From the NCBI GenBank assembly GCA_965226195.1, contig OZ245333.1:2087127-2151126 (forward strand): a DNA stretch of 64,000 nucleotides, read 5' to 3'. How positions within the stretch are numbered: the first letter of the stretch is position 1; every line of letters begins with the position of its first letter. Below the pieces are notes generated by a model that made no database searches, was not told the DNA's origin, and saw only the letters and a list, made by a program, of their open reading frames with translations. Below are positions 10,701 to 59,466 of the stretch, piece by piece. Made by a program: the position numbers and the translations under genes. This DNA comes from Oligoflexales bacterium (lineage in GTDB: Bacteria; Bdellovibrionota_B; Oligoflexia; Oligoflexales; JAPPIL01).

Positions 10701-10843
10701 TCCGCCCCATAAGATGTTTCAAGGAGAGGCGTTGCCGCGTTGTTGAGAACAGCGATAAGTTCAGAGGCCTGACCTTGTTCGTCGTCAGCAGGCTCTGTGT
10801 GCCCTTCGTCAACGCTTGTGTCGTTATCGTGTGGTTCTCGCAC
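7724..10843 (-). CDS. NAD-specific glutamate dehydrogenase, large (~1000-aa) bacterial class
   Basis: 1039-aa ORF with GDH catalytic-core motifs (ARGGVRVI, GGPDGDVAGNE, ANKGGVICSSYEV) embedded in long N- and C-terminal extensions, as in the Bac_GDH family. Confidence 0.85.
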   Translation of the reverse strand: MREPHDNDTSVDEGHTEPADDEQGQASELIAVLNNAATPLLETSYGAEKSGSELAAYIEEVSDTVRIGFDQSIAILSPWFFNNMPDVYYQTTPKAEKIKHLSAIITGHVFETKQTVELWNRHRNKVTYIGPGNDRQITLDMAHRLASINLDIKMGFLYFSRDYLLFLSSFFCQKRKPLDRNNLRITEKIEKAARLLLAEFPNNKDSVNYFLQRLDNDFVMYATVARIQLTYRMVHYMLQHEGAHTTVYRLKDTSQISLTLGTKGVETSKILEQILNLIHRYGFSIVRAFMVNFNEDWKEPISVLNFALSVDQVRQKEAEEVSLLKLNKALRTLGWVDNDEYTNFSKDRWSLSINSINLVRAIAQWIHILLGKRNHYYYSQYKIRETFFKHAKLVKDAIDLFRLRFDPLNDREKAAQQYDHDKQKLLDTIDKVIDEVEKTIMVESVHFINNILKTNYFLHTKTGLAFRLAPQILDKKYYPHEPFGIFYIVGIGYRFFHVRWKDIARGGVRVIISKTVSDADFALSGLFDEVYGLSRAQQLKNKDIPEGGSKGVLLVRPGTDKDRAMRGAINAFLDLLVPTDEAHEESSSQQIRYYDADEIIYLGPDENVSEELIEWIAEQAGRRGYRYASAFVSSKPQNGINHKRYGVTSEGVNVFVEHTLRHLGIDFKRENFSITMMGGPDGDVAGNELKILHREYGERARVKVVADGKGIAYDPDGLDWQELLRLCTESVSIASFNPKFLQSDKAFVREADTAENIAARNEMPLQVEADIFIPAGGRPYTVSDKNWRLLLDADGQPTKKAIVEGANIFFTSEARDELQKHGILIVKDSSANKGGVICSSYEVLASLLLSSEEFCAIKEHYVQQVIRILQDKAASEAQLLFREYVAHGRQKNLVAISMEISAQINSVKGVLLEYLLDNPQELDEDRIYQKTILANCPAILVKKYANRILHDLPQAHKIAILASAIASNIIYREGIDWIESLSAADRLRVALAYVNQEQLTSDLIAQVESSAMQDKDKIAKVLSMGATRNLTMLEIIDRL

Positions 10844-10894
10844 TGTTTTTCCCCTCTAGCAGCGTGCTTTCTGGCACACTGTTTGCTCGTGTCC

Positions 10895-11031
10895 CGGCTC
10901 GTTGCCGCTTTCTAGCTTCGCACGGTTCTTTGCCGCTTTCCTGCTTCGCACGGCTCGTTGCCGCTTTCCTGCTTCGCACGGTTCTTTGCCGCTTTCCTGC
11001 TTCGCACGGCTCTTTGCCGCTTTCTAGCTCC
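10895..11031. repeat. Tandem array, about 5 x 28 bp, of the CTTTGCCGCTTTC(C/T)(T/A)GCT(T/C)C repeat family
   Basis: Direct reading shows the unit ctttgccgctttcctgcttcgcacgg(c/t)t repeated head-to-tail. The array fills the gap between the GCS2 stop and the GDH start. Confidence 0.9.
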
Positions 11032-11034
11032 ACC

Positions 11035-12447
11035 TCATTGCCCCAGCAGTGCCGCCCACTTTTCTTCCAACTGCAACAACTGCTCAGGGCAAAGATAACC
11101 CTTGTCGCTATTCTTTACCAGCATCTGTATATCGGCAGCTGGTGTTTTGTTTTTCAGGGTAAAATGCTCGAAAAAAACTTGCAGGCGATTTTTTGCTCCT
11201 GTGCAGCGAAAACGTGGCGGCAATGCCTCCAAACCAGCAAGTGCCAGTTCCGTTAGCCAGTGCAGGCGTTGGTGAAAATTTGCCTCGACCCGTGCGAGAC
11301 CGTGACAAGCAAGATGCATCATTTCTTCTTGACGACCGAGTTCAGGCAACAATGCATCGAGCACGCGATCGAGATGGGGCGGGTGGTAGACGATGCCCAG
11401 ATAAAAGGCTACTGGTGCAGGTTGCCAGATGAGTGGTTGGCAGTCGATCGAACGCAACTCAAGATACCCACGCGGGCGCACTTCGGGAAAAAGAGTGTAG
11501 AGATGATCCCTAAAATCCTTGACAGTCGGACGCATGCCCTTGATTCCCACATCAAGCCAATCCAGAAAAGTGGTGCTGTGCTGCTTGTCGTTACCGAGTC
11601 GCACCACGAGTGCTTGCAGAGCAAAATCGAGATAAGCTTGCACACAGGCAGCACGGCTGCGTTCACGTGCGATTGCTTGTAGTGCAGGAAAACCTGTGCG
11701 AGTGCGGTCGAGTTCACGCCAGACGTGGGTGCGGAAAGTCTGCATCTGCATGTGATGGCGATCCCATACGCCAGATGTGGCAAACATTGCCGCGCTGTAG
11801 GGGGCGAGGAGATTGCAGACTAGGTAGCGTTTGGCCAGCAGGTCCTCACTTGCACCGTAGTCAAGGTTGACCTGTTGTGTGCAAGCTTGCTGCATCATGC
11901 GTCTGCCGATGGGGGAAAAGTGCCCGAAGTGATAGTCGAGCAGCAGGTAGGTGGTTTTGGGAATTTGCAAGCCGATCTCGCTTAGCGTATGCCACGGGTT
12001 GATGCCAAGTCGCAGCAGATGTATCGAGTGATGCGCGAGATGGGCAGCCAGTTTCTCTTGCACCACCCTACTACGGTTTAGCACCTTGTGCAGGTCGGTA
12101 TGTGGCTGCGAAGAATACTCAATCTGTCCGCCCGGCTCGAAGGTGAGGCTGTCGCCCTCGCCAAGATCGAGCCGCAGTGCTTCTTTAGATAACAGCTCGT
12201 CGCCCGCGTAGGTATCAGGCCAACCTTCCTGCAGAGCTAGGTCACGCAACATTGTGCGCAGCCCTTTCCCTTCAGCACTGAAGAACGGCACAACCGTCGG
12301 GAAGGAGTTGGCAGTAACCTGAGCCGCGATCATCTCGACTTCAATGCCAACGAGGTCATCGTCTGTGGCGCGCAGTGGGAACAGTTCGTCATGAACGATT
12401 TGAGCGCAGATGTCCTTGTCGATAGGGTAATCAGGTGGGTTGTTCAT
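11035..12447 (-). CDS. Glutamate--cysteine ligase family protein (GCS2 / plant-type)
   Basis: The ORF carries LVGIEVE and TFEPGGQIEYS motifs typical of family-2 gamma-glutamylcysteine ligases. The start is set at the ATG at 12447 (MNNPPDYP), 1 nt after the upstream gene's TGA. Confidence 0.7.
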   Translation of the reverse strand: MNNPPDYPIDKDICAQIVHDELFPLRATDDDLVGIEVEMIAAQVTANSFPTVVPFFSAEGKGLRTMLRDLALQEGWPDTYAGDELLSKEALRLDLGEGDSLTFEPGGQIEYSSQPHTDLHKVLNRSRVVQEKLAAHLAHHSIHLLRLGINPWHTLSEIGLQIPKTTYLLLDYHFGHFSPIGRRMMQQACTQQVNLDYGASEDLLAKRYLVCNLLAPYSAAMFATSGVWDRHHMQMQTFRTHVWRELDRTRTGFPALQAIARERSRAACVQAYLDFALQALVVRLGNDKQHSTTFLDWLDVGIKGMRPTVKDFRDHLYTLFPEVRPRGYLELRSIDCQPLIWQPAPVAFYLGIVYHPPHLDRVLDALLPELGRQEEMMHLACHGLARVEANFHQRLHWLTELALAGLEALPPRFRCTGAKNRLQVFFEHFTLKNKTPAADIQMLVKNSDKGYLCPEQLLQLEEKWAALLGQ

Positions 12448-12448
12448 T

Positions 12449-13105
12449 TCACTCGGCCAGTTCCTGCTGCGGTGTAGTTGTAGTGCCATGCGTCAACACT
12501 AGCTTCATTACCGCATCGGCGTTAGCAACTTTTCTCTTTACCAGCCTTTGAAAGCCATTAAAAGCAATAACCGCAGGAATTGCCACCAGCAGACCGACGG
12601 CAGTGGCAACGAGAGCTTCGGAAATGCCAGCCATAACAACGGACACGCCGCCTTCAGGGTTGTGTGAGAGGTCGTTGAAGGCCTGAATAATACCCAGCAC
12701 TGTGCCGAACAAGCCGATAAAGGGAGCGTTATTGCCCAGTGTGCCAAGCACAACGAGGCCGCGATCGAGCTGCTGACGCTGTCCGATCAAGACGTTGAGC
12801 ATACTCTGCTCGACTGCCTGTATGCCACGTCCGCGATTGCGGAAGGCCGCCAATGCTACCTGACTTTCAATGGCACGGCTCTGCTCGCACAGGGCGATGG
12901 CTCGTTCATATTCACCGCTGCTCAGGCAACGGGTCAATTCGTGCGTGAAGGGGCGCAGGTTGAGACGCAAGCGATAGAAACACCAGAGTCTCTCCAGCAT
13001 AACTGCCACCGACACCACGCTCAGCAATACCAACAGCCACAACACCCACTCAGTACCAATCAAACTGAGCGCCAACAATTCCTGCACAATATCGAATTCA
13101 GGCAT
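12449..13105 (-). CDS. MotA/TolQ/ExbB proton-channel family protein
   Basis: 218-aa ORF with three TM segments and the conserved C-terminal channel region (LGTLGNNAPFIGLFGTVLGII..., ALVATAVGLLVAIPAVIAFN). No ExbD/TolR partner gene is adjacent. Confidence 0.8.
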   Translation of the reverse strand: MPEFDIVQELLALSLIGTEWVLWLLVLLSVVSVAVMLERLWCFYRLRLNLRPFTHELTRCLSSGEYERAIALCEQSRAIESQVALAAFRNRGRGIQAVEQSMLNVLIGQRQQLDRGLVVLGTLGNNAPFIGLFGTVLGIIQAFNDLSHNPEGGVSVVMAGISEALVATAVGLLVAIPAVIAFNGFQRLVKRKVANADAVMKLVLTHGTTTTPQQELAE

Positions 13106-13232
13106 CTTCTTCTCTCCCCCACTACCTTCCCTTTATCCTACCACACTTTCTCTCTCTGGCTACGGGGGGGTGTTTTGTGCCAAGACAGAACTCTTGACAC
13201 GCGAAGACATTTGGGTAGAATGCATTTTCTCT

Positions 13233-13306
13233 GCGGGCATAGCTCAGCTGGCTAGAGCGTCGCGTTGCCATCGCGAAGGTCGAGGGTTCAAATCCCTTTG
13301 CCCGCT
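13233..13306 (+). tRNA. tRNA-Gly (anticodon GCC)
   Basis: A hand-folded cloverleaf gives acceptor GCGGGCA/TGCCCGC, anticodon stem TCGCG/CGCGA, loop TTGCCAT, T-arm GAGGG-TTCAAAT-CCCTT and discriminator U. No CCA is encoded. Confidence 0.9.
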
Positions 13307-13307
13307 T

Positions 13308-13522
13308 TTTGTTTTTATGCGGGGAGCGTTCCCCTGGCTTTGTTGCATAAGTTCCGTTGATTATAACATGCTGTTACCATAGCACTTTTATGTGGGGAGC
13401 GTTCCCCTCCCCGCTTTGCGCGGCTCTTTGCCAAAGGCGTGCCCGAAGGCACGCCTAGCTCCACACCCCTGCGTGTTCGCAGACTTCTCGTTTGGGTCAG
13501 GTGCAATCATCCTGCTGCACCA
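13308..13522. repeat. Copy A of a ~215-bp near-identical duplicated non-coding element (partner at 24288-24499)
   Basis: Only a handful of mismatches and small indels separate it from 24288-24499. It contains GGGGAGCGTTCCCC motifs and the hairpin GGCGTGCC-CGAA-GGCACGCC (13436-13455), embedded in a split copy of the short-repeat core. Confidence 0.85.
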
Positions 13523-14153
13523 TTCACACATGTGTGAATGCTCTTTGTCGCTTCCTAGCTCCAGCTAACGCATTCGCGTGAAATGGTTCGCTGTGATGCT
13601 TCCTCCCGCCCCTGTGTAAACTTTTGCGGACAATGCAAACTTGTGTGTAACACGAGCAACTTCTCCATAACATCAATATGATCATTATGAGATTGTCAAT
13701 GCTCGGCACTATGCCTATACCCCAAAGAAAAACCCCGTATTAAAACTCGCGGCTTTAGAGGCAAGTTCAGATGATGGGCAGCACAAATATGCCAACACCT
13801 ATATCCATCTTTGCGGGCGAGGGTTGTTGTGACCCAAGCAGTGTGCCAGAAGGCACGCTGCTAATCCTTATTGCCAAAGGGCACAAGCAAGTGGAAGCTA
13901 GCAAGCAGCAAAAGGATTGCGTAGCACGCCCGGGAGGCCAAATGTTAGGCGCGCAAGGCAGACCTTGGCTAGCACTACGCCTGAGTGTACGAAGCGAGCT
14001 AGAGCGAGAAAGCGGCAAAGAGTTCGCGAAGCGAGCGTTACAAAAAAGCGGCGTAAGCTAGCATTCATCCATTCAGCTGCGTCCAGCAGCTGAAAAAAAA
14101 CAAAACAAGCTAATGATTAGTTTTTTTCTCGCAGGTTACGTATACTGGCGGGC

Positions 14154-14942
14154 ATGATTTTCCTGCCGTTACTGTTGTTTCTTGTCGCATTTGTGCTGGT
14201 TAGCAGCCGCCAGCGACTCGCACAGCAAGCATTGGAGACGCTGACAGGGACAGTCAGGTTGATTACCGAAGCCGTGCTGAGCAACGACCTCGCGCGGCTT
14301 AATGCTCCGACGACAACGACTGCCCCAGCCTGCCGTTTTGTGGGTGAATTGGCACAGACACACCTCTATCGTGGCGAACTGCGCGTCGAAGCACTGCGTC
14401 TGCTACAACAGGCGATTGCTGCGGCACGTGAGCAGCAGCGTTTACAAGGGCAACTGCGTATGCTGTTCATGACCCGTGTGGGTGGTGTGATTGTCTTTAG
14501 CATGCTGGGTAATTTTTTGCTGAGCCATCTGATTGCCGCCGCTCCACACTCGTATCTCGTTACCGTCGTTGGCATTGCAGTGTTGCTGGCGGGTGTGTTG
14601 GTGTTGGAAAAAACCCTGCCCGCGTCGTGGTTCTGGCAACGACACGATCTCAGTGCGCATGGACAACACTGGACAAAGGCACTGTTCGACCGTCACGACC
14701 ACAGCTTTCACCCGATACTGCAGCAAATACAACAGCGCGAGATTATGCTGGGCATCGACCTAAGTGTGGAGAAGACTGCGTTTCTTACCCACTGGCAACA
14801 CGAGCGGCAGGATGCGGAAAAAGCAACCTTGCGCAGGTATCAGGATTTTTTCCCTATCCTAGAACTGCTCGTCTTTGCTACGCTTGCCGCGCTGCATCTG
14901 TCACCTGTCTTGCGCAGTCTGTTCGCACTGCTCAGTGACTAG
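14154..14942 (+). CDS. Hypothetical membrane protein
   Basis: 262-aa ORF with several hydrophobic segments. No recognised motif. Confidence 0.45.
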   Translation: MIFLPLLLFLVAFVLVSSRQRLAQQALETLTGTVRLITEAVLSNDLARLNAPTTTTAPACRFVGELAQTHLYRGELRVEALRLLQQAIAAAREQQRLQGQLRMLFMTRVGGVIVFSMLGNFLLSHLIAAAPHSYLVTVVGIAVLLAGVLVLEKTLPASWFWQRHDLSAHGQHWTKALFDRHDHSFHPILQQIQQREIMLGIDLSVEKTAFLTHWQHERQDAEKATLRRYQDFFPILELLVFATLAALHLSPVLRSLFALLSD

Positions 14943-16987: not shown

Positions 16988-17467
16988 CTATTCGCAAGCC
17001 TTTTCAGCCGTCACCCACGTGGTGACCTTTTCCTTGGTCAAGCCACCGAGCTGGTCTTTACCGGGATGCTCCTTGTCAGCGAGATCGCCAGTGAGATACG
17101 TCCACAGCTTGTCCGCATCGAGTAAATTTTTCTCCTTGACTTTAGCTAGCATGCCTTCTTTGTTGCTAGCGGCGTTGGTCTCACCTGCCTTCAGCGCAAA
17201 CCCACCCTCGTCAGTCGCACTCGAATGACAGCCAGAGGCATCACAACTGTCTGTCTTGATATGCGGCTGGATGTTGCTGGCAAACGCTGTCGATGCCGCA
17301 GGGCAACCGTCCGTTGTTTCTGTTGGTTCATTCTCGCCATTGCACTGCCACAACATCAATGCCGCGACAATCGCTACGCTAACCCTTTGCCGCTTTTTAG
17401 CTCCGCTAACTCTTTGCTGCTTTCTAGCTTCGCTAACTCTTTGCCGCTTTCTAGCTCCACGCATCAT
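16988..17467 (-). CDS. Putative lipoprotein with a CX4CH (heme-c-like) motif; paralog of 17756-18196
   Basis: Lipobox-like LMLWQC and the motif SCDASGCH, with a shared architecture with the neighbouring gene. The only available N-terminus consists of three 27-nt repeat units (ARKRQRVSE/ARKQQRVSG/AKKRQRVSV). Confidence 0.55.
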   Translation of the reverse strand: MMRGARKRQRVSEARKQQRVSGAKKRQRVSVAIVAALMLWQCNGENEPTETTDGCPAASTAFASNIQPHIKTDSCDASGCHSSATDEGGFALKAGETNAASNKEGMLAKVKEKNLLDADKLWTYLTGDLADKEHPGKDQLGGLTKEKVTTWVTAEKACE

Positions 17468-17496
17468 CTCTCCCTCCTTTAATTGGTAAAAAATAT

Positions 17497-17754
17497 CTCT
17501 TCCTAGCTTCGCTAGACTCTTTGCCGCTTCCTAGCTCCGCTAGACTCTTTGCCGCTTTTTAGCTCCGCTAGACTCTTTGCCGCTTTTTAGCTCCGCTAGA
17601 CTCTTTGCCGCTTTTTAGCTCCGCTAGACTCTTTGCCGCTTTTTAGCTCCGCTAGACTCTTTGCCGCTTTTTAGCTCCGCTAGACTCTTTGCCGCTTTTT
17701 AGCTCCGCTAGACTCTTTGCCGCTTTTTAGCTCCGCTAGACTCTTTGCCGCTTT
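17497..17754. repeat. Pure tandem array, about 9 x 28 bp (unit AGCTCCGCTAGACTCTTTGCCGCTTTTT)
   Basis: Direct reading shows nearly identical units without spacers. They fill essentially the whole intergenic gap between the two CX4CH lipoprotein paralogs. Confidence 0.95.
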
Positions 17755-17755
17755 A

Positions 17756-18196
17756 CTAGCGCCCACTGCTACATTTTTGCTCAGCTGCTAACCATGCCGT
17801 GATGCCCTCCTCGGTGATGTGTCCTGCGGCAACTTGGTTGCCCCCACCATGGGTATCGTCAGTGATCTTGTCAAGCAGCACACCATCTCCCATCAGCCAC
17901 CTGTTGCGGTGAGAAATCATATTAGCCCGATTGCCGGTGGCGGTATCTTCGTTTTCTTTCTTTAGCAGCTCAAGTCCACCACCGGGAGCGTCGGCATCAC
18001 TGCCATGACAGCCTCCGCCGCTACACGATGCATCTATGGCAGTCTGGATATTTAGCTCAAAAGTATAGAGTGCTAGTTGGGGGCACTCTTTTCCTTCGAT
18101 TGGTGGTAGTTCGGGTGTGGGGGACTGTGGGTCGTTGTTCTCGTCGCTGCACTGCCAGATAGAGCACAGCAGCACGATGCACAAGATGCGCGCCAT
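17756..18196 (-). CDS. Putative lipoprotein with a CX4CH (heme-c-like) motif; paralog of 16988-17467
   Basis: Start chosen at MARILCIVLLCSIWQC (lipobox-like). Motif SCSGGGCHG and a conserved C-terminal ...TAWLAAEQKC. Confidence 0.55.
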   Translation of the reverse strand: MARILCIVLLCSIWQCSDENNDPQSPTPELPPIEGKECPQLALYTFELNIQTAIDASCSGGGCHGSDADAPGGGLELLKKENEDTATGNRANMISHRNRWLMGDGVLLDKITDDTHGGGNQVAAGHITEEGITAWLAAEQKCSSGR

Positions 18197-18314
18197 GGGT
18201 AAATCCTTGCATTGAACTAGAATTCCTTCCCTCCATGTTAGCATGGAGAAGATTGAAATTCCAGAACTAGTTAGTTATAATCATGGGTGATTTTGTTTTT
18301 CAGCGGGTTTTGCT

Positions 18315-22379: not shown

Positions 22380-22482
22380 TTTTTCCGCGGCTTTTGCTAT
22401 CGTCGCATGTGTGCTATGCTGGAGCTAGAAAGCGGCAAAAAGTCTCCACGAGGCTTGAGTCTGATTGAAACAGAGGAGTGTT

Positions 22483-22962
22483 ATGGATACGGCTGGTTTT
22501 GCTAAAGTAAAGGGCTATCTCAACGAACTGGGATTGGCGATTATCAAGGAGGTTGCCGACGATGACCTGTTTATCGTGCAGGACGAGGACAACGGCATCA
22601 ACAATTTAGTTATCGATGTCGAAGACCCGATTGTTGTTCTCGAACAGTTTATCATGGACGTGCCTAAGCAGGGGCAGGAGTATTTTTATCGTCGCCTGCT
22701 GCAGATGAACCGCGCACTCGTGCACGGTGCATTTGTGCTCGATGGGGAGCTAGAAAGCGGCAAAAAGTTAGCGGCACAGCCGCTAGAAAGCGGCAAAAAT
22801 CTGCGACATGAGCGTAGCGAAGTGGTGGCACAACGTGTTTATTTTCGGGATACCTTGCAGCTGCAAAATCTTGATCTCAACGAACTTGAAGCTTCGATCA
22901 AGGCGTTGTCGCTAGGTTTGGCTGAAGTCAGTAGCGAGCTGATTGAATTTTCCAAAAACTAA
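22483..22962 (+). CDS. YjfI-like (DUF2170-like) protein paired with PspA, carrying two in-frame repeat units
   Basis: The ATG at 22483 is preceded by AGAGGAG, and the gene lies immediately upstream of a PspA-family gene, as in yjfI-yjfJ. The internal LESGKKLAAQP-LESGKNLRHE segment is encoded by repeat units at 22746-22800. The family call is tentative. Confidence 0.5.
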   Translation: MDTAGFAKVKGYLNELGLAIIKEVADDDLFIVQDEDNGINNLVIDVEDPIVVLEQFIMDVPKQGQEYFYRRLLQMNRALVHGAFVLDGELESGKKLAAQPLESGKNLRHERSEVVAQRVYFRDTLQLQNLDLNELEASIKALSLGLAEVSSELIEFSKN

Positions 22963-24209: not shown

Positions 24210-24287
24210 GCCCATCTCTCCTGATTGGAATTTTCAATAATTGTGTGGCACTATCGCTCAATTACCTGAAGTTTGCAACCAAGTATT

Positions 24288-24499
24288 TGTTTTTATTGTG
24301 GGGAACGCTGGCTTTGTTGCATAAGTTCCGTTGATTATAACATGCTGTTATCATAGCATTTTTATGTGGGGAGCGTTCCCCTCCCCGCTTTGCACGGCTC
24401 TTTGCCAAAGGCGTGCCCGAAGGCACGCCTAGCTCCACCCCCCCCTGCGTGTTCGCAGACTTCTCGTTTGGGTCAGGTGCAATCATCCTGCTGCACCAT
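24288..24499. repeat. Copy B of the ~215-bp duplicated non-coding element (partner at 13308-13522)
   Basis: Near-identical to copy A, and includes the same GGCGTGCC-CGAA-GGCACGCC hairpin (24410-24429). Confidence 0.85.
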
Positions 24500-24883
24500 G
24501 TCTCATGCTAAAGCATTGGCGTGAAATGGTTTGCAGGTCTGCTTGCACCTGACCATTGTCAATTTCTGTGGACACTACGGGCCTGTGCGTGGTGCAGGCA
24601 TTACCTTTGCAACACCTATAAGATTCTTACTGCTAAAGGGTTATAGGATATAAACATGCCTGCCCTGAGTTATGCAACAAAGCCGGACATGCTGGGTGCT
24701 CTCGCTACTTGCTTTCACTACTTGATGCTGAAGGAGACTAAAAAGCAATCAGAGGGGTACCGGCTATTTTGACCCATGTCTGCAACAACCATCTTTATAG
24801 GAGCTAACAAAAAGACAGCAAGCATCGACCCGTCATCTGCGCCAGCAGCTGAAAAAAACTAAGCTGCGCTAGCAAGTAACACC

Positions 24884-25864
24884 TTATGTCACATGAACAA
24901 GGATACGCTTGCTGGTTTTACGAGCTAGCATCTGCTCGGCTACTGAAGGTAAGTCGGTGAGTGTAATTTCTTTGTCGCACAACATGTCAAATTGACGTGG
25001 CTTAAGCTCGGCCGCGAGGCGTTGCCAAAGACGGCGGCGTTGTGACCGCGGACAGTTGTTGGAGCTGATACCGAGCAAATTCACCCCGCGCAGAATGTGA
25101 GGGAAGATAGTGCTGTTGAGGTCGGCAGAAGACGCAAGACCGACACAGGCAACGTTACCATGTAGTGCGGTTGCCTTGAGCAAGGCTGTCAGGTATTTGC
25201 CGCCAAGATTATCGATTGCCCCGCCCCAACGCACTGAGGCAAGCGGTGCTGAGCTATGCTCAAGCAACTGTGCGGTTGTGCAGATTTTCTCCGCCCCTAA
25301 CTGTTGTAGCCACGTGTGGCTGCCCTGCTTGTCGCTCACGGCGATAACTTTGTAACCACGCTGACTGAAAATAGCGACGGCGATACTGCCAACTCCGCCT
25401 GAAGCTCCTGTGATAACAATATCACCTAGCTCTGGCATTTGTGCATTGCGTTCCATCTGTTCGAGACATAGTGCTGCAGTAAATCCCGCCGTGCCGAGTG
25501 TAATTGCTTCCTTTAGTGTCAGACCTTGCGGCAAGGGAATGAGATGCTGGGCTGCGACCGCGGCTATCTCGCAGTAACCACCATCGTGTTCTTCCCCCAG
25601 CCCGCAACCTGTAGCCAGCACCTTGTCACCGCAAATAAACGGAGCAGTGCCAGCATCGAGCACTTCACCAGCAAGGTCAACACCAGCAATCAGCGGAAAC
25701 TTGCGAATAATACGTCCACGACCTGTGATTGCCAATGCGTCCTTGTAGTTGAGTGCCGAGTAATGCACTCGCACCAGCACTTGCCCTGCACGCGACACGG
25801 GTGCCGCGGCATCAACTATCTCTGCCTTGTAGGTGTCGGTGTTAGAAATTTGTAAAGCTTTCAA
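24884..25864 (-). CDS. YhdH/AcuI-type NADPH-dependent oxidoreductase (MDR superfamily)
   Basis: YhdH-like motifs VHYSALNYKDALAITG, FPLIAGVDLAGEV and ITGASGGVGS. The likely start is the TTG at 25864, which overlaps the upstream gene's TGA (TTGA). Confidence 0.8.
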   Translation of the reverse strand: MKALQISNTDTYKAEIVDAAAPVSRAGQVLVRVHYSALNYKDALAITGRGRIIRKFPLIAGVDLAGEVLDAGTAPFICGDKVLATGCGLGEEHDGGYCEIAAVAAQHLIPLPQGLTLKEAITLGTAGFTAALCLEQMERNAQMPELGDIVITGASGGVGSIAVAIFSQRGYKVIAVSDKQGSHTWLQQLGAEKICTTAQLLEHSSAPLASVRWGGAIDNLGGKYLTALLKATALHGNVACVGLASSADLNSTIFPHILRGVNLLGISSNNCPRSQRRRLWQRLAAELKPRQFDMLCDKEITLTDLPSVAEQMLARKTSKRILVHVT

Positions 25865-26556
25865 TGCTGCTGCTTTCCTTGCGGTGTTAGTGCGACGCTC
25901 AAGCCCTTCATGGCATAGTAGAGGCAACCGCCGTTAAAAATGTGCCAGAGAAAGTGCGTGCCAGTCGGAAAATGCGGGCAGATGTGTGCGTCAAGAATGC
26001 GGCAAAATAGCGAGGCGGAAAAAAAAGCAAGTGCCACACCGTAGATTGTTGCTTCTGCGCAGCGACGACGTAAGCGATCAAGATAAAACAAGGCGATAAC
26101 CAGCAACGGGCTGAAGTAAAATTCCGAGTTGTTCAAAAATTCAATCTTGAAAACACGCAAAAATGCGGTGCAAATTACAAACAACATGGTAATGGCAATC
26201 GTAGTGCTTGTCTTGAGACGCAGCACGCAAGTCAGCCAAGTGATAACGTAGACAATCATGAACAAGCTTATCGGGCCAACATCAAGAAACAACGCCCAGA
26301 AGCGAGCAAAACTGTGGAACAGTGAACTGCCAATTGCAATTGCTAAAATTAAATACTGGAGAACTGTAAACAACAACGCGCAGTTTAGCGGGCGTAACTT
26401 TCTCACCGCAAAGAAAGCGATAAAAAAGGCAAGGTTGGAAAATAAATTCCACGGCTCTGCCAGCAGTCCGTCCGCGGTGCGCTCGCAGTATAAGTCAACC
26501 AGCCCGCTCAGCGGCGGAATGTCATGTAGCCAAGTCTTATCCATAGCTGCCTGCAC
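25861..26556 (-). CDS. Ceramidase-like (alkaline ceramidase/CREST superfamily) membrane protein
   Basis: 7-TM-like ORF with YCE....EPWNLFSNLAF, GSSLFH and HFLWHIF motifs. Confidence 0.6.
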   Translation of the reverse strand: MQAAMDKTWLHDIPPLSGLVDLYCERTADGLLAEPWNLFSNLAFFIAFFAVRKLRPLNCALLFTVLQYLILAIAIGSSLFHSFARFWALFLDVGPISLFMIVYVITWLTCVLRLKTSTTIAITMLFVICTAFLRVFKIEFLNNSEFYFSPLLVIALFYLDRLRRRCAEATIYGVALAFFSASLFCRILDAHICPHFPTGTHFLWHIFNGGCLYYAMKGLSVALTPQGKQQH

Positions 26557-26853
26557 ATGTTGTCAGTAGCTGGGGCACGACGCGGATAGTTCGGCCTGAA
26601 TCTGTTGCTGACAACATATGACGCACATAGTTGCACGGTGAATTCTTTGCCGCTTTCTCGCTCTAACCTTTAAGCATAGCAGCACTGCTGGGTCAAAGCA
26701 AAAAATACGTCTGTACCTCTTGCGTAGCATGCGAAAATCGTTTCTAATTATACACAGAGCTAATTTTTACAATCGGGCTAGTTTGCTGCTGCGTTGACTG
26801 TCTGCTCGTAGCTTGGGGCTAGCTTATATTCGCGGGGAAGGGATATTTTTACC

Positions 26854-42705: not shown

Positions 42706-43148
42706 CGTCTAGCCACTCCCATGTTAAAAATAAACTTCACAATAATTATCGGAAGTTTTTCTATAACATTAATTTTTTTGTAACGAGACAATCTCATTGA
42801 TAATTCTATCGAGATTGTAGAGTTAGCACACTGGCTCTAAGCATGTAGTTATACTAACAAATGGGAGGACATTGCTACACTGCTAGGCATATTCTTCACT
42901 GGTAGGTCGTGTTGACAATCTGCTTGAAAAACCTGCCTACCACCAAACAAAAATAAATACAGGAAAATCATGATTGCTCCACCATAATGATCTTGCCGCG
43001 TGCCTTCGGCCCACTGCTTACGGGGAGTCTGTACGAAAACTCGACCATAGATAGTGCTTAACATGCTAACTAGTTTATTTTTACAAATAAAGTGTGTGTT
43101 TACTTCCCACGAGGTCGAGTTTCTCGGTAGGACTGCCTCGTGTTAACA

Positions 43149-43877
43149 CTAGACACACCGCCGCAATAACTCTTCACACTGTTCAGTAGGCGGCTCAATC
43201 AACTCTGCCGCAAGCAAGCGCACAACCGCACGTGGCAATTCTTTGCGCAATGTGGCGCTTATTTTGTCTTGCTCGCTGTCTGGCACGATGTCAGCAAGAC
43301 CGCACAAGAACTGTGCATGCGTGCGTCCGGCGCGATAGTCAGGTTCACGCTGTGGGTGTGGCAGCAATGCCTCGATCTTGTCCACCTCTGCACGGTAGAG
43401 CAGCGAAGCCTGATAGAGGAGATAGTTGCGACTGCGAAAGATCGACGTGCCGCCTACCTTGCGTTCTCCCCAAGCAATATCGCTGATACCACGATGGCGC
43501 AAATCGGCCCACGCAGCACAATAGACAGCAAAACTTTCAATCAATGCGGTGTTGATACGCTCAAAGTAGTGCGCATTGTGAAAGTAACGCCCTACCCACA
43601 GCCCTATACTGACGATGATGCAGTACTGGTGCAAGACCACCGCTCCGCCGCCGCCCTTGCGCCGCAAGACAGAAACACCTTGTGCCGCACAGCGTTCCTG
43701 ATAGCACGCAGCCTCAGGGCTATCGCTGTTACCCAACACTACTATGTCGCGCTCAGGTGACCAGACTTGTGTGCAGATTTTTTGCCGACATTGGGCAATG
43801 ACACGGCGATCGATACCACTTGCTATGCTTGTAGGGCTGTTTGTCCGCTTTCTAGCTCCGACCAACGCCCGTATCAC
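43149..43877 (-). CDS. Lipoate-protein ligase/octanoyltransferase (BPL_LplA_LipB) family protein
   Basis: Motifs RRKGGGGAVVLH and GERKVGGTS are typical of the family. The N-terminal residues VGARKRTN are encoded by a repeat-family unit. Confidence 0.5.
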   Translation of the reverse strand: MIRALVGARKRTNSPTSIASGIDRRVIAQCRQKICTQVWSPERDIVVLGNSDSPEAACYQERCAAQGVSVLRRKGGGGAVVLHQYCIIVSIGLWVGRYFHNAHYFERINTALIESFAVYCAAWADLRHRGISDIAWGERKVGGTSIFRSRNYLLYQASLLYRAEVDKIEALLPHPQREPDYRAGRTHAQFLCGLADIVPDSEQDKISATLRKELPRAVVRLLAAELIEPPTEQCEELLRRCV

Positions 43878-44686: not shown

Positions 44687-44729
44687 GCTTCGCTCCGCTC
44701 GCTGGCTTGTTTGCCGCTTTCTTGCTTCA

Positions 44730-50680: not shown

Positions 50681-51066
50681 AACTTCACTCCCCCTTCACG
50701 CACGCCCTCTGCTAGAGCTTTTAGGCGACCGTGATAATTGCAGCCATTGCGATCGAAAACTACCGTCTTCACTTCTTTTGCCAAACACGCAGCAGCTAGT
50801 TTCTGCCCCAGCACTTTGCAGTTTGCGACGTTCGCCCGTGAGGCTGCGCCACGCTTTTTGCCGCTTTCGCGCTCCAAATCATCTTTGCCGAACGAACTCA
50901 CCGCCACCAACGTATGCTGCTTCACATCGTCGATCACCTGTGCATAGATGTGCCGTGCTGAACGAAACACCGACAGACGTGGGCGCTCCGTCGTGCCGCT
51001 GATTTTCTTGCGAATACGCTTCTTACGCCGCAACAGCAGCATTAGCTTAAGTGTCTGCTTCTTCAT
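50677..51066 (-). CDS. rplR: 50S ribosomal protein L18 (uL18) with an apparent internal repeat-unit insertion
   Basis: RPRLSVFRSARHIYAQVID...FDRNGCNYHGRLKALAEGVREGG matches uL18. The internal LERESGKKRG is encoded by the repeat core at 50854-50875. Confidence 0.93.
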   Translation of the reverse strand: MKKQTLKLMLLLRRKKRIRKKISGTTERPRLSVFRSARHIYAQVIDDVKQHTLVAVSSFGKDDLERESGKKRGAASRANVANCKVLGQKLAAACLAKEVKTVVFDRNGCNYHGRLKALAEGVREGGVKF

Positions 51067-51620: not shown

Positions 51621-51631
51621 CTCTGCTCCTT

Positions 51632-51713
51632 ACTCCGCTCGTCGCAGGACTCTTTGCCACTTGCTAGCTCCTCACTCCGCTCGTCGCAGGACTCTTTGCC
51701 ACTTGCTAGCTCC
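51632..51713. repeat. Two tandem 42-bp units of the repeat family in the rpsH-rplF spacer
   Basis: actccgctcgtcgcaggactctttgccacttgctagctcctc is repeated at 51632 and 51674. Confidence 0.9.
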
Positions 51714-51714
51714 A

Positions 51715-52110
51715 TCAATACACCGAACACAACAGCTCTCCACCCGTGCCACGTCGCCGTGCTTCACGATCGGTCATGACACCCTGAGAAGTTGAAAGCA
51801 CGACGATACCAAAACCGTTCTTGATCAAGGGAATGTCCTCGCTCCCCACATAACGCCGACAACCGGGACTACTAATGCGTTTAATCTCTCTAATTACACC
51901 GTTCAACGGGTCACGATACTTTAGCGTGATCTTCAACAAACCCTGCTTGCCATCACGAATACAGCGGTAGTTTTTGACAAAACCTTCTTGCCTGAGAATA
52001 TGTGCAATGGCAATCTTTATCCGCGACGCGGGCATACTTACCACCTCGTTACACGCCCGCTGCCCGTTACGAATACGAGTGAGAAAATCAGCAATAGGAT
52101 CAGTATTCAC
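51715..52110 (-). CDS. rpsH: 30S ribosomal protein S8 (uS8)
   Basis: DPIADFLTRIRNGQRA... matches uS8. Confidence 0.95.
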   Translation of the reverse strand: MNTDPIADFLTRIRNGQRACNEVVSMPASRIKIAIAHILRQEGFVKNYRCIRDGKQGLLKITLKYRDPLNGVIREIKRISSPGCRRYVGSEDIPLIKNGFGIVVLSTSQGVMTDREARRRGTGGELLCSVY

Positions 52111-52124
52111 AGCTTAAAAACCCC

Positions 52125-52310
52125 TTACCACGATGCTTTCTTAACGCCGGGCAACAATCCACTCAACGCCATCAGCCGAAAACAGATGCGGCAAATCAAA
52201 AACTTACGGTAAACCGCCTTCGAGCGCCCACAACGACTACAGCGTGTGTAAGCACGGGAAGAAAACTTAGGTTTACGACTTGCCTTTGCAATCAAAGATT
52301 TACGTGCCAA
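52125..52310 (-). CDS. rpsN: 30S ribosomal protein S14, short zinc-binding type (uS14)
   Basis: A 61-aa ORF with CSRCGR...CRIC, i.e. type-Z S14. Confidence 0.93.
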
Positions 52311-52320
52311 ACGCTGCCCC

Positions 52321-52881
52321 TTAATTCTTTTTGAACGGAAATTTAAACCGATCTAGCAAAGCTTTTGCTGTTATATCGTTTTCAGCAGAAGTGACAATAG
52401 TTATCGACAGACCGCTGATTTTTTCGACTTTATCGTAATCTATTTCAGGAAAAATAATCTGCTCGACAATACCCAGCGAGTAATTTCCTCGCCCATCGAA
52501 CGACTTGGGTGGATAACCACGAAAGTCACGAATACGAGGCACGGCAATGTTAATCAGCCGATAGAGGAACTCATACATCCTGTCATGACGCAAGGTCACC
52601 ATGCAACCAATCGGCATGCCATCACGGATCTTGAAACCAGCAATACTTTTCTTCGCTCGCCGCACGGCTGCCTTCTGCCCGGTAATACGGGCTAATTCCT
52701 GCAACGAGCTGTCGAGTGCCTTGACGTTCTGCGCTGCCTCACCTTTGCCGATGTTGGCAACGATCTTCTGCAAACGCGGCACTTGCATGGCGTTATTCAA
52801 CCCCAACTCTTGCTGCAACTCGCGGCGAAACTGCGTATATGCTTGCTTGAGCGCGGGCACGTGTGCTGCTTGCTTTGCCAT
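52321..52881 (-). CDS. rplE: 50S ribosomal protein L5 (uL5)
   Basis: [20 protein letters not shown]...RDFRG...[11 protein letters not shown] matches uL5. Confidence 0.95.
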
Positions 52882-53250
52882 CTACACTACCTCCGGTGCC
52901 AGCGATGCAATTTTGATAAAGCCGCGGTTGCGAATTTCACGTGCCACAGGGCCGAAAATACGCGTCCCAATTGGCTCGTTGTCCTTGTTGACCAGCACGC
53001 AGGCATTCTCGTCGAACTTAATCGTCGTGCCATCCTTGCGCTGCACTTCTTTCTTGGTGCGCACGACCACTGCCCGCTGCACGCTGCCTTTCTTGGTCTT
53101 GCTGCCCGGCAGCACCTCACGCACCGAGACGATGATAATATCGCCGGGTGCGGCATAACGTCGGTTCGTGCCGCCCGGAATTTTGAAACATTTCAAACGC
53201 CGCGCGCCTGAATTGTCCCCGCTCTGCAGAATGCTTTCCATTTGAATCAT
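52882..53250 (-). CDS. rplN: 50S ribosomal protein L14 (uL14)
   Basis: [24 protein letters not shown]...GPVAREIR matches uL14. Its TAG is immediately followed by the rplE ATG. Confidence 0.95.
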
Positions 53251-53576
53251 CTTGTCGCCACCCTTATGATTTCCAGCAGATTAAAGCTTTTGCGCTTGCT
53301 GCGTGGCCGACAGGGACGCACCAGCACCTCATCACCAAGCTGCGACTTGTTATCCTCATCGTGAAAGAGAATCTTCGTCGTGCGCTTAATATATTTGCGA
53401 TAGATAGGATGCTTGACCAAACGCTCAATCTTCAACGTGCGGGTCTTCGACAACGCCGCACTGATCACTACGCCTTTCAGCGTCTTGATGCGCGCTTTGC
53501 CTGCTTCGCTCGGCTTTTTGCCGCTTTCTGCTTCGCAGGACTCTTTGCCGCTTGCTCGCTCCGCTTCACTCGTCAC
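53247..53576 (-). CDS. rpsQ: 30S ribosomal protein S17 (uS17) with a repeat-derived N-terminal extension of about 25 aa
   Basis: The core [44 protein letters not shown] matches uS17. The N-terminal [26 protein letters not shown] is encoded by repeat units. The only in-frame start I can find is the GTG at 53576, which overlaps the rpmC end. Confidence 0.9.
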
Positions 53577-53793
53577 GCTGCACCTCCTGTGTCGTTGTCA
53601 GTGTTTCCACCGTACCCGATGTCTTGCGTTCTTGCTGTTCGGTGCGAATGGTAAGCACGCGTGCCAGCACCCGCCGCAACTTGCGCTGCTGTCCGATATT
53701 TATTCCTTCTTTGTTGAGTGGTGCACGCAACTTGGCTATCGCAAGCTGTTCACGCACGTTCTCCTCTGTCTCTTTCATGTCGGCAGCACTCAT
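53566..53793 (-). CDS. rpmC: 50S ribosomal protein L29 (uL29)
   Basis: MSAADMKETEENVREQLAIAKLR...QRKLRRVLARVLT matches uL29. The start choice is tentative and the C-terminal tail is longer than usual. Confidence 0.85.
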   Translation of the reverse strand: MSAADMKETEENVREQLAIAKLRAPLNKEGINIGQQRKLRRVLARVLTIRTEQQERKTSGTVETLTTTQEVQRDE

Positions 53794-53818
53794 CTTTCTT
53801 ATTTCCACTGTCGTCAGT

Positions 53819-54259
53819 TTAGCTAGCTCCACGTGCCTGCTCCCATACATCTGTGTTCCGCATCAACAAACGTGTCTTGAAGGGCAGTTTCGAGCCTGCC
53901 AGCGTCAAAGCACGCGCGGCAATGTCGGCACTGACATCTGCCATCTCGTAGAGAATCAAGCCCGGCGCAACGGGCGAGACATAGTGATCGACCGCACCTT
54001 TGCCACTACCCATGCGTGTCTCTGCCGCTTTCTTGGTCACTGGCTTGTGAGGAAAAACTTTAATCCACACCTTACCACCACGCCGAATGTGACGCGTCAT
54101 AGCAATACGTGCTGCTTCAATCTGCCGTGCCGTGATGTAACCCGATTCGGTTGCCATCAGTCCGTAACTGCCAAACGCCAACTCCGTGCCACCCTTGCTG
54201 TTGCCTTTGATGCGCACCTTATGCGTCTTGCGAAATTTCATTTTTTTTGGTGCTAACAA
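53819..54259 (-). CDS. rplP: 50S ribosomal protein L16 (uL16)
   Basis: MLAPKKMKFRKTHKVRIKG...RMGSGKGAVD matches uL16. Confidence 0.95.
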   Translation of the reverse strand: MLAPKKMKFRKTHKVRIKGNSKGGTELAFGSYGLMATESGYITARQIEAARIAMTRHIRRGGKVWIKVFPHKPVTKKAAETRMGSGKGAVDHYVSPVAPGLILYEMADVSADIAARALTLAGSKLPFKTRLLMRNTDVWEQARGAS

Positions 54260-58882: not shown

Positions 58883-59466
58883 AGCTGCTCGTCGGGCTGG
58901 GTAATCCCACGCCGCACTACGCCTTTACCCGCCACAATGCAGGTTTTATCTGTCTCGACTTGCTGGCGACAGAGTATAGCCTGACGTGGACGGAGAAAAA
59001 AAAACTGCGGGCTTTGGTGGCGCAAGGTGAGGTATTTGGCACAAAGTGTCTTTTGCTGAAACCGCAGACATGGATGAACCATAGCGGTCAAGCGGTGGCC
59101 GCGGCGGTGAATTTTTTCCGCCTCATGCACGACGACGTGGTGGTCTTGTATGATGACCTCGACGTGCCCGCAGGACGAGTGAAGTGCAAGGACGCTGGCA
59201 GTAGCGGTGGACACAACGGCGTGCAGAGTGTCATTGATTGTCTGCACAGCCAAAATTTCCAGCGCATCAAGCTGGGGGTGGCACGTCCGCCAGAAGCGCA
59301 GCATTCGGGGGATGGGAGCGAGAAAGCGGCAAAAAGCAGACCCACGAGCGGAGAGGAGTGGGTGCTGGGAAAATTCAGTGCAGCTGAGCTGGAAGTTTTG
59401 CGCACAGAGATGTATGAACAGGTGCTGCTGCGGTTGCGGCAGATTTTCAGAGAAACGCAGGCTTAA
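58879..59466 (+). CDS. pth: Peptidyl-tRNA hydrolase with an apparent internal repeat-unit insertion
   Basis: KLLVGLGNPTPHYAFTRHNAGF and ...GGHNGVQS match Pth. The segment PPEAQHSGDGSEKAAKSRPTSGEE interrupts the usually short G.G.P....VL loop and contains the repeat core at 59315-59336. Confidence 0.9.
   Translation: MKLLVGLGNPTPHYAFTRHNAGFICLDLLATEYSLTWTEKKKLRALVAQGEVFGTKCLLLKPQTWMNHSGQAVAAAVNFFRLMHDDVVVLYDDLDVPAGRVKCKDAGSSGGHNGVQSVIDCLHSQNFQRIKLGVARPPEAQHSGDGSEKAAKSRPTSGEEWVLGKFSAAELEVLRTEMYEQVLLRLRQIFRETQA

Follow-up and report, generated by a model that had tools for sequence, protein, structure and literature searches.

We describe a dispersed repeat family, built on a purine-rich core of 22 nt, in a 64,000-nt stretch of the genome of an Oligoflexales bacterium (contig OZ245333.1 of assembly GCA_965226195.1, positions 2,087,127 to 2,151,126; hereafter the window). 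The family is shared across species of one Oligoflexales clade, in which its copies have recently been gained, lost, expanded and contracted. We propose that it is probably a selfish or neutral mobile repeat, ultra-short, non-palindromic and restricted to this lineage, whose copies would arise by a copy-and-insert process at GAG or GGAG sites, multiply by slippage, and remain where a survival filter lets them.

Copies of the repeat in the window

Searching the window with the core (queried as CTCTTTGCCGCTTTCTAGCTCC; its purine-rich “sense” form is GGAGCTAGAAAGCGGCAAAGAG) gives 23 matches at three or fewer mismatches, against 0 in 100 dinucleotide-preserving shuffles. An nhmmer profile trained on 134 copies finds 33 units at 15 loci (E<0.06), with spans at 10893-11033, 13539-13563, 13894-13913 (weak), 14002-14028, 17378-17460, 17510-17754, 22420-22447, 22744-22798, 26638-26663, 43837-43860, 44701-44729, 50853-50876, 51643-51715, 53508-53564 and 59314-59338. 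Beyond these 15 loci, two hairpin-split variants appear as partial profile matches at 13418-13432 and 24391-24406. Tandem Repeats Finder recovers the larger arrays as 28 nt x 4.6 (10895-11024), 28 nt x 9.0 with 98% matches (17504-17754), 42 nt x 2.1 (51625-51713) and 27 nt x 2.4 (53501-53565). An earlier note on this DNA, made from the letters alone, had described a dispersed short-repeat family in spacers, at gene 5' ends and inside conserved open reading frames (ORFs); the core and profile searches find a copy at every site that it named, and Pfam matches and alignments to Protein Data Bank (PDB) structures bear out the settings. The copies are as follows.

10893-11033, minus strand: the GCS2-GDH spacer, flanked by a GCS2-family glutamate-cysteine ligase gene (11035-12489) and an NAD-glutamate dehydrogenase gene (7724-10843), with five 28-nt units arranged head to tail
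13418-13462, minus strand: hairpin-split variant (GGAGCTAGG-CGTGCCTTCGGGCACGCC-TTTGGCAAAGAGCC) in copy 1 of a duplicated element of ~270 nt
13539-13563, minus strand: single copy, then a 16-nt perfect palindrome (TTCACACATGTGTGAA)
13894-13913, plus strand: weak degenerate copy (GAAGCTAGCAAGCAGCAAAA; E=0.03) in the same non-coding region as the preceding one
14002-14028, plus strand: single copy that has a GCGAAGCGAGCG tail; ORF 14154-14942 begins 126 nt downstream
17378-17460, minus strand: three in-frame 27-nt units (GARKRQRVS EARKQQRVS GAKKRQRVS) straight after ATG ATG CGT in ORF 16988-17467
17497-17754, minus strand: nine head-to-tail 28-nt units, 98% identical, filling the spacer between ORF 17756-18244 and ORF 16988-17467
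22420-22447, plus strand: one copy in the spacer that separates a GATase gene from the co-directional CesT-like gene
22744-22800, plus strand: two in-frame units (ELESGKKLAAQPLESGKNL) in the CesT_Tir_1-family ORF 22465-22962, whose Pfam domain is split in two
24391-24436, minus strand: the hairpin-split variant again (GGAGCTAGG-CGTGCCTTCGGGCACGCC-TTTGGCAAAGAGCC), in copy 2 of the ~270-nt element
26638-26663, minus strand: single copy between divergent genes, sense to the ceramidase-family ORF 25861-26556 and ~80 nt upstream of it
43837-43860, minus strand: diverged copy at the 5' end of an LplA/B-family ORF (start GTG 43877 or TTG 43865), reading in frame as GARKRTN
44687-44729, minus strand: copy plus GCCAGCGAGCGGAGCGAAGC tail, filling the rpoA-rplQ spacer
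50853-50885, minus strand: 33-nt in-frame insert (core + CGTG + GCGCAGC; peptide LERESGKKRGA) within rplR (L18)
51630-51714, minus strand: two units of 42 nt each, lying in the rpsH-rplF (S8-L6) spacer with their insertion point at the Shine-Dalgarno GGAG
53495-53566, minus strand: ~2.5 units read in frame as an N-terminal extension of S17 (rpsQ), ~25 aa
59314-59358, plus strand: ~42-nt unit inside pth, in the third frame (GSEKAAKSRPTSGE)

Each unit comprises the core and a variable tail that often includes GCG(N)AGC or GCGGAG. GGAG opens the core and (A)GAG closes it; the least variable positions of the core are AGC at 3-5 and AAGCGGCAA at 10-18. Unit ends are ragged, periods of 18, 27, 28, 33, 36, 42, 44, 54 and 72 nt occur, and in arrays with an 18-nt period GGCAA is joined straight to the next GGAG. 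When the window is compared with 25 repeat-rich loci (L001-L025) of a sister genome, OY282434.1, core-to-core spacings favour multiples of 9 nt (18, 27, 36, 45, 54, 72) in 47 of 71 cases, including arrays that are apparently non-coding; the 28-nt period is confined to the window in this set, and a TAG-less 36-nt unit leaves all three sense frames open. A contrast between coding 27-nt and non-coding 28-nt units holds at 17.4 kb but is no general rule, because some arrays without a confirmed coding role have 36- or 42-nt units.

The repeat is not palindromic. Of seven representative units or arrays, six show folding no better than that of their dinucleotide shuffles (z -0.6 to +2.0); the sole hairpin-forming subfamily among those folded is GCGGCAAGGAAGCCGC (z -2.9). 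Neither the consensus nor the folding reveals terminal inverted repeats in the core or the units. A palindrome or hairpin element of the kind seen in several known families (REP, RPE and SDR, introduced below) was therefore rejected as a general description, this one subfamily excepted.

The copies within genes use all three sense frames, giving GARKRQR, ELESGKE and SEKAAKS peptides, the last of these in peptidyl-tRNA hydrolase (Pth). A functional protein repeat with a nuclear-localisation-like KRQR motif was considered and set aside, since copies are read in all three frames and the 28-nt arrays do not code for protein. The insert in L18 coincides with a gap of 7-9 residues in solved structures of this protein. 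In S17 the sole in-frame start codon is upstream of the repeats, and the N-terminus is longer than that of E. coli S17 in the PDB alignment. The three units at 17378-17460 lengthen the basic N-terminal region of a signal peptide or lipoprotein-like peptide (...VAIVAALMLWQC), and the 5' ends of the LplA/B-like ORF in the relatives L036 and L037 are shorter and unrelated to that in the window. In the pth copy the TAG typical of the family is replaced by GAG. The structural model of Pth has a mean pLDDT of 89.9, with insert residues 142-153 below 50, and the 14-aa insert is accordingly predicted to form a disordered loop. The insert peptides of the three frames are hydrophilic and presumably tolerated as disordered loops or terminal extensions.

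The gene next to rpsQ is also variable: the L29 C-terminus differs in length (83-102 aa) and sequence between the window (53566-53850) and its orthologues (L036 2015-2266, L037 2034-2342, L031 1870-2130). The L29 gene overlaps the rpsQ start, and the window L29 ORF has six additional N-terminal residues.

The duplicated element of ~270 nt that contains the hairpin-split variants is a direct repeat on the plus strand (13290-13620 and 24260-24600), ~97% identical over ~210 nt, and its first copy lies directly downstream of a tRNA gene. In addition to the hairpin-split core, it includes a promoter-like TTGTTG-N16-TATAAC and two strong hairpins (GGGGAGCGTTCCCC, GGCGTGCCCGAAGGCACGCC). It has no Rfam match; it could be a mobile module or encode a small RNA.

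Filled and empty sites in related genomes

The repeat is not peculiar to the window. In a scan of 185,579 species genomes (one genome per species) the exact core was found in a single one, OY282434.1, an uncultured Oligoflexales metagenome-assembled genome of 2.84 Mb with at least 25 core loci. The earlier note had suggested looking for the core elsewhere, and its abundance in this sister genome does not bear out a local artefact. Syntenic DNA of the window (from a 2.95-Mb genome) and OY282434.1 is 77-85% identical. That the window might itself be part of OY282434.1 was rejected: none of the 25 loci overlaps it, and orthologues are ~80% identical. Judged by sequence divergence, the two are different species with the same core. 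Further relatives with copies are L034 (RF2 92% identical), L036 (RpoA 94%) and L033 (a 2.18-Mb genome, Pth 70%). Outside this group, a degenerate 22-mer scan of JGI metagenomes gave just four isolated single matches, on contigs of unrelated GC content, which look like chance, and a viral contig collection gave 0 matches to the core; a wider distribution of the family was therefore rejected. The repeats are no artefact of one assembler either, because an independent short-read Logan contig of the same strain (L026, ERR14231558) is 100% identical to window positions 51684-53548 and the related genomes have the family. This contig breaks within repeats at both ends; its breakpoint is a shared k-mer, GGCAAAGAGTCCTGCGA, present in the S17 copy and the S8-L6 copies alike.

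Orthologous DNA from five relatives was aligned with the window to establish which sites are filled and which are empty. The differences are clearest in the ribosomal protein operons. The rpsH-rplF spacer is 94 nt long in the window as opposed to 9-10 nt (stop-AGGAGGnnnnn-ATG) in L031, L036 and L037, and the rpoA-rplQ spacer is 43 nt versus 6 nt in L036. L18 has 129 aa in the window (33 nt, or 11 aa, more) versus 118 aa in L036 and L037, and S17 has 109 aa versus 84 (L031), 88 (L037) and 92 aa (L036). The reverse also occurs: S8 is without an insertion in the window, and L036 has its own 24-aa insertion of diverged copies there. The single copy at 22420-22447 is found at the same site in L034, the closest relative, with one substitution. 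The CesT-like protein next to it is filled in the window, filled with another internal arrangement in L034, and empty in L035 (133 aa; GATGAGGAGGGGCAGCGG). A filled/empty pair exists even inside the window, where the 13539 copy and its palindrome form a ~33-35-nt insertion in copy 1 of the ~270-nt element; the paralogue at ~24480 lacks it and reads CATGAG/ACATGG there (a slash marks the junction).

Copy number changes as well. The signal-peptide protein has 3 x 27 nt in the window that are absent from its OY282434.1 orthologue (138 aa, MIRVAVAMVAALWLWQC), and the spacer upstream of its gene contains nine copies in the window versus one degenerate copy, in a 64-nt spacer, in OY282434.1. This indicates that the 9 x 28 array expanded in the window lineage. 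The Pth site has none, one, two tandem or a decayed copy among 16 relatives. It is empty in OY282434.1 (CAGCATTCAGGGGAGGATTGGGTG), and in a neighbour-joining tree this clean empty allele is nested among an otherwise filled clade (270 of 300 bootstraps), which implies either precise loss or repeated gain at one site. In other words, copies come, go, expand and are rearranged over times comparable to those of species divergence, and the core consensus is unchanged across the clade.

These comparisons bear directly on the idea that the family is no mobile element at all, but cryptically simple sequence that arose independently at purine-rich sites by slippage and biased mutation. Ragged ends, the many periods that are multiples of 9 (18, 27, 36, 45, 54, 72), low-complexity tails (AGCGAGCGAAGCGAGCG) and the local growth of an array from one degenerate copy to nine are all consistent with such an origin. 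However, two species have the identical 22-mer, 9-12 of its positions invariant, at dozens of unlinked sites, where 0 are expected by chance, and the complete core was gained in one step relative to clean empty orthologues, which local slippage cannot yield. The filled/empty comparisons largely refute this origin, and we regard it as very improbable.

In OY282434.1 the core occurs mostly as one module of long mosaic intergenic repeats, in which motifs are combined in variable order, and window positions 13970-14055, which hold the 14002 copy, match a mosaic module abundant there. The core in OY282434.1 also adjoins, and is sometimes inserted within, larger U-elements. These are units of ~215-300 nt (…CCGTTGTCTTGGCACGGCGCAGACCTGCCGAGAAACTC…GCACATGCCTTGTGCAAAAAAATAA…GGTCGAGTTTTCGCACGG…) without an Rfam match, with ~80-90 related segments in L001-L025, and they fill intergenic regions of OY282434.1 up to 2.3 kb long (e.g. 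L017 3290-5617). The window has a member of this family in a ~120-nt segment downstream of the LplA/B-like gene (43020-43142, minus strand).

Several genes of OY282434.1 contain long stretches of repeat or differ from the window in content. An IS3-family transposase ORF (L025 3295-4323; HTH_Tnp_1 … HTH_21) has ~110 aa of ELESGKE/SAKPAK family repeats between its domains, with a change of frame to GARKRQ within the array. A NuoN-like (Proton_antipo_M) ORF (L010 2598-4445, minus strand) continues through a 15-unit array in an antisense frame, gaining a C-terminal tail of ~150 aa (SADSLPLSSS); this is the sole antisense copy found within an ORF. Two features have no counterpart in the syntenic part of the window: an ankyrin-repeat protein between the S10 operon and pth (L031 7646-8422), and a BsobI-like restriction-modification pair downstream of dnaB (L031 13131-15447). 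The ankyrin protein is a hint of association with a eukaryotic host, and the bacteria of this clade are probably host-associated. Elsewhere in the window, an 884-aa ORF (1592-4246, minus strand) has a partial match to subtilase (Peptidase_S8) at residues 200-348 and a Sigma54 DNA-binding domain at residues 658-715; the pairing is unusual, and the ORF could be a diverged RpoN, a fusion or the product of a wrong join.

Insertion sites, orientation and a proposed mechanism

The empty sites suggest a target. Their junctions read AGGAG/G at S8/L6, GGGGAG/GAT at Pth (CATGAG/TGG in L033), GATGAGGAG/GGG in the CesT-like gene, CATGAG/ACA in the ~270-nt element, CTGAG/CGG at rpoA/L17 and GCC/GAGAAAC in a U-element. 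GAG lies at the junction in 5-6 of 8-9 empty sites, against a background of 5-11% of sense-strand positions that are as near a GAG; for five of eight, p is roughly 2e-5 to 7e-4. A GAG/GGAG target rule is suggestive. In a test for target-site duplications of fixed length, GAG/GGAG was also seen to flank the inserts, but the junctions are ambiguous, and copying mediated by microhomology would give the same picture.

We propose the following scenario. New copies would arise through a copy-and-insert process that prefers GAG/GGAG sites, which are offered by Shine-Dalgarno sequences and by Gly and Glu codons. As the core is bracketed by GGAG...GAG, insertion would regenerate GAG on both sides and keep a ribosome-binding site by the downstream start. 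If the target rule holds, insertion into a Shine-Dalgarno sequence would be harmless, because the element regenerates GGAG near the start codon. Arrays would then grow and shrink by slipped-strand mispairing, and selection would act as a filter, leaving survivors only where genes keep working. In coupled operons the surviving inserts would be those with a mini-ORF that bridges stop and start, and in two of three with their own GGAG just upstream of the start. The element itself would appear to have no function tied to any particular site.

The operon spacers illustrate what such a filter may have passed. Bridging mini-ORFs are present in three of four operon spacers (S8-L6, rpoA-L17 and GCS2-GDH) and absent from the fourth, the 9 x 28 array, in which TAG or TAA closes all three frames. 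The S8-L6 mini-ORF, of 35 codons, starts in overlap with the S8 stop (TGATG) and runs to 10 nt beyond the L6 ATG. That of rpoA-rplQ has 15 codons (MKQESGKQASERSEA*) and overlaps both the rpoA stop (TGATG) and the rplQ start (ATGA). In the GCS2-GDH spacer, the first unit begins 1-3 nt past the upstream stop codon and the whole array is bridged by a ~77-codon ORF, from a GTG 1 nt past the stop to an end 16 nt past the downstream GTG. The element supplies a GGAG just before the start of rplF (GGAGCAGAG-ATG) and of rplQ (GCGGAGCGAAGC-ATG); in the latter case it is the GCCAGCGAGCGGAGCGAAGC tail that places GGAG 8 nt upstream of the ATG.

Orientation is strongly biased in the window, where every locus assignable to a gene, 13 in all, is sense (a count that takes in the weak 13894 copy, the below-threshold 43837 copy and, with the downstream gene as reference, three copies in divergent regions). 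The long mosaic intergenic regions of OY282434.1 hold 19 sense and 16 antisense clusters. This mixed orientation suggests that the sense bias is a survival filter and not a property of the mechanism, and a mechanistic coupling of orientation to transcription was rejected on the same count. Read in sense, the element leaves two frames open, and the TAG-less GCGAG subfamily leaves the third open as well. Read in antisense, one frame has a stop and the other two encode Cys/Phe/Leu-rich peptides, and the mRNA would contain CTCC, which is complementary to the Shine-Dalgarno sequence.

The same features may be taken to mean that the repeat is a functional mRNA cis-element, such as a ribosome-binding or standby site, a translational-coupling module or a binding site for a regulator like CsrA. 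The window copies in or near genes are all sense, most copies lie within ~100 nt of a start codon, the rplF and rplQ starts have the element's own GGAG ~6-8 nt upstream, and three operon spacers have bridging mini-ORFs. The core is conserved across species, and some units fold worse than shuffles (z +1.7, +2.0), as expected of an accessible leader. Yet presence is not conserved at the level of genes, the ribosomal-protein junctions being empty in three relatives; copies lie deep within ORFs in all three frames; and the long intergenic mosaics of OY282434.1 are of mixed orientation. A CsrA-type GGA hairpin, with the 6-bp stem TCTAGC-GGA-GCTAGA, is limited to the arrays with a TCTAGC tail and is thermodynamically unfavoured, folding worse than shuffles (z +0.88), and was set aside as a general account. 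We therefore consider a site-specific role of this kind unlikely.

A third possibility is a bulk genomic signal spread by molecular drive, either a DNA-uptake sequence (of the USS or DUS kind) or a polar motif for a translocase or recombinase. Like the dialects of DUS, the exact core is conserved across species of the clade, it is found between genes and, in tolerated frames, within coding regions, and individual sites turn over fast. However, head-to-tail arrays of up to 9-15 units and nested mosaics are not features of uptake sequences or of Chi or KOPS motifs, and the copies arise as insertions of 33-84 nt rather than by point mutation. Orientation tracks genes, flipping within a few kb, instead of following the direction of replication, and density is very uneven, with 33 units in the 64-kb window and 0 in several 17-20-kb loci of relatives. 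The probability of such a signal is, in our estimation, very low.

Several observations weigh against the mobile-repeat scenario that we favour. The GAG rule was set post hoc on 8-9 sites, some with ambiguous junctions, and the L18 and signal-peptide sites fit it poorly. Bridging mini-ORFs could be partly due to chance, as the element is open in two to three frames, and the inserted segments would be translated to judge by their reading frames alone. Similarity between copies does not drop with distance and thus gives no clear signature of local spread; the notion that neighbours are more alike was rejected (Mantel rho 0.08, p 0.22), though some neighbours share variants. Comparison of the window proteins with Pfam and PDB revealed no transposase, reverse transcriptase or REP-associated tyrosine transposase (RAYT). 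Finally, the 22-nt core is identical across species whose proteins are 15-30% different, which is unexpected for decaying neutral DNA.

This exact conservation of the core implies sequence-specific machinery, a template or a function. We therefore entertain, as possible though doubtful, a stronger hypothesis: that the core serves a dedicated copying machinery, undescribed and still active, as its recognition or template sequence. This machinery would place inserts of 15-45 nt at GAG/GGAG and could build arrays by repeated copying. An RNA-templated polymerase with realignment at the GGAG/AGAG ends might fill this role, as might a nuclease or recombinase with sequence specificity. A specific version of this, in which a reverse transcriptase of telomerase-like or DRT2-like habit copies an RNA template, realigns on GGAG/AGAG and integrates at GAG-containing nicks, we judge to be quite unlikely. 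It would explain why the core starts with GGAG and ends with AGAG, why the 18-nt arrays (GGAGCTAGAAAGCGGCAA/GGAG...) look as microhomology realignment would make them, and why GAG is found in empty sites, and the strict conservation of the core suggests a conserved template. But the 64-kb window and the fetched loci showed neither a reverse transcriptase nor a template locus, and DNA template switching explains the microhomology junctions equally well.

Mosaic repeat regions of OY282434.1 include an Rpn/YhgA-like putative transposase gene (Transposase_31) in at least two copies (L008 2441-3588 and L013 2546-3547), 89% identical over 1.2 kb. The gene appears to be a pseudogene split in two ORFs, and its C-terminal part has GIEQG-type peptide repeats of its own. 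These genes are candidates for a part in RecA-independent recombination and for the copying machinery, linked to the repeats by proximity alone. A TnpB gene in L032 is a lead only.

Relation to known repeats and significance

The earlier note had called the repeat atypical for repetitive extragenic palindromic (REP) sequences and the bacterial interspersed mosaic elements (BIME) that they form, and had likened it to Rickettsia palindromic elements (RPE), with a much shorter unit and head-to-tail arrays. Each of these points stands. RPE are ~105-146 bp long and palindromic (PMC3184786). As with RPE, the copies described here are dispersed between genes and in frame within conserved genes, are tolerated on the protein surface, are confined to one lineage without an identified transposase, and differ among related species. 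In-frame insertion of this tolerated kind is seen in L18, S17, Pth, the CesT-like protein and S8 of L036, when these are compared with solved homologues and with orthologues that lack the insert. In contrast to RPE, the units measure 18-72 nt around a 22-nt core, outside the RPE range of 100-150 bp, and have no structure beyond that of shuffles where RPE have a stable hairpin; arrays reach 9-15 units where RPE form no long head-to-tail arrays; and the host clade is Oligoflexales. As the units are non-palindromic, membership in REP/BIME and RPE fails despite the RPE-like behaviour.

REP sequences are imperfect palindromes, strictly extragenic, arranged as inverted doublets and linked to RAYT (PMC3116915). 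The present family is like REP, BIME, REPIN and neisserial mosaics in its short units (~20-40 nt), its high copy number and its place as a mosaic module in OY282434.1. It is unlike them in being non-palindromic, arranged in head-to-tail direct repeats and partly intragenic (rplR, rpsQ, pth and the CesT-like ORF), and no RAYT was found in the window or the fetched loci. The missing terminal inverted repeats separate it from miniature inverted-repeat transposable elements (MITE), and its origin by insertions of 33-84 nt in direct tandem arrays, in place of point mutation, separates it from USS and DUS.

Closer in size are the small dispersed repeats (SDR) of cyanobacteria. Elhai in 2008 is said to have described SDR of 21-27 nt that are nested in other repeats, embedded in tandem short repeats and confined to a coherent subgroup of genomes; at least one reportedly inserts only at a specific short target, HIP1, and SDR4, SDR5 and SDR6 are said to share a hairpin with compensatory changes. 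RNA intermediates were reportedly proposed there for repeats of similar size. The family described here shares the size class of ~20-30 nt and the restriction to a genome subgroup; its GAG/GGAG preference parallels HIP1, and it is nested in like manner, as the core occurs inside U-elements of OY282434.1 and inside the duplicated ~270-nt element. It differs from SDR in lacking a general hairpin and in its sequences and phylum, which are unrelated, and in-frame insertions in ribosomal proteins and arrays of 9-15 units are prominent here.

Mycobacterial interspersed repetitive units (MIRU) provide the nearest parallel for the operon spacers, being tandem intergenic repeats of operons with units of ~40-100 bp and ~40-50 loci per genome (PMC3184786). 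Here, too, co-oriented tandem units in variable copy number occupy operon spacers (GCS2-GDH, S8-L6, rpoA-L17 and 17756/16988), three of the four with mini-ORFs that overlap the flanking stop and start. The small ORFs of MIRU, which likewise overlap flanking stop and start codons, are said by Supply et al. in 1997 to preserve translational coupling. Units are mostly 27-42 nt here and also occur within conserved ORFs, where MIRU are unreported. Fusion of small repeats in frame to the 5' end, 3' end or interior of ORFs is known in several bacteria (PMC3184786), and such fusions, together with modular repeats of which some are tandemly iterated, recall the pneumococcal BOX, RUP and SPRITE elements; these, however, are longer than 100 bp, structured or MITE-like, and unrelated in sequence.

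The earlier note had also left room for a match to a described family. Rfam searches of the window and five repeat-rich loci (gathering threshold) and of 13200-14200 (E-value threshold) returned nothing but tRNAs, and a literature search turned up nothing published about the repeat or the genomes. Given the in-frame fusions known from other bacteria, an element of this kind is not new in itself; the family, its tiny non-palindromic unit, its array habit and its host clade are new as far as we have searched.

Most known ultra-short repeat families are old and decayed, or are without close relatives that have empty sites. The family described here is common to no fewer than four sister genomes, complete or nearly so, and to several relatives from metagenomes, and its many lineage-specific insertions in conserved genes and 10-nt operon junctions allow filled and empty states to be aligned base by base. 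Its target rule, its unit structure and the search for a co-occurring enzyme are therefore directly testable by comparative genomics. There is a practical side as well, since the repeats fragment short-read assemblies, truncate gene calls and shift the annotated starts and ends of genes. For the bacteria themselves, the family shows the extent to which the essential proteins S8, S17, L18 and Pth and translationally coupled operon junctions can absorb foreign sequence. If a dedicated and active machinery does copy the core, this would be among the smallest mobile elements known, active across sister genomes and reshaping their ribosomal proteins.

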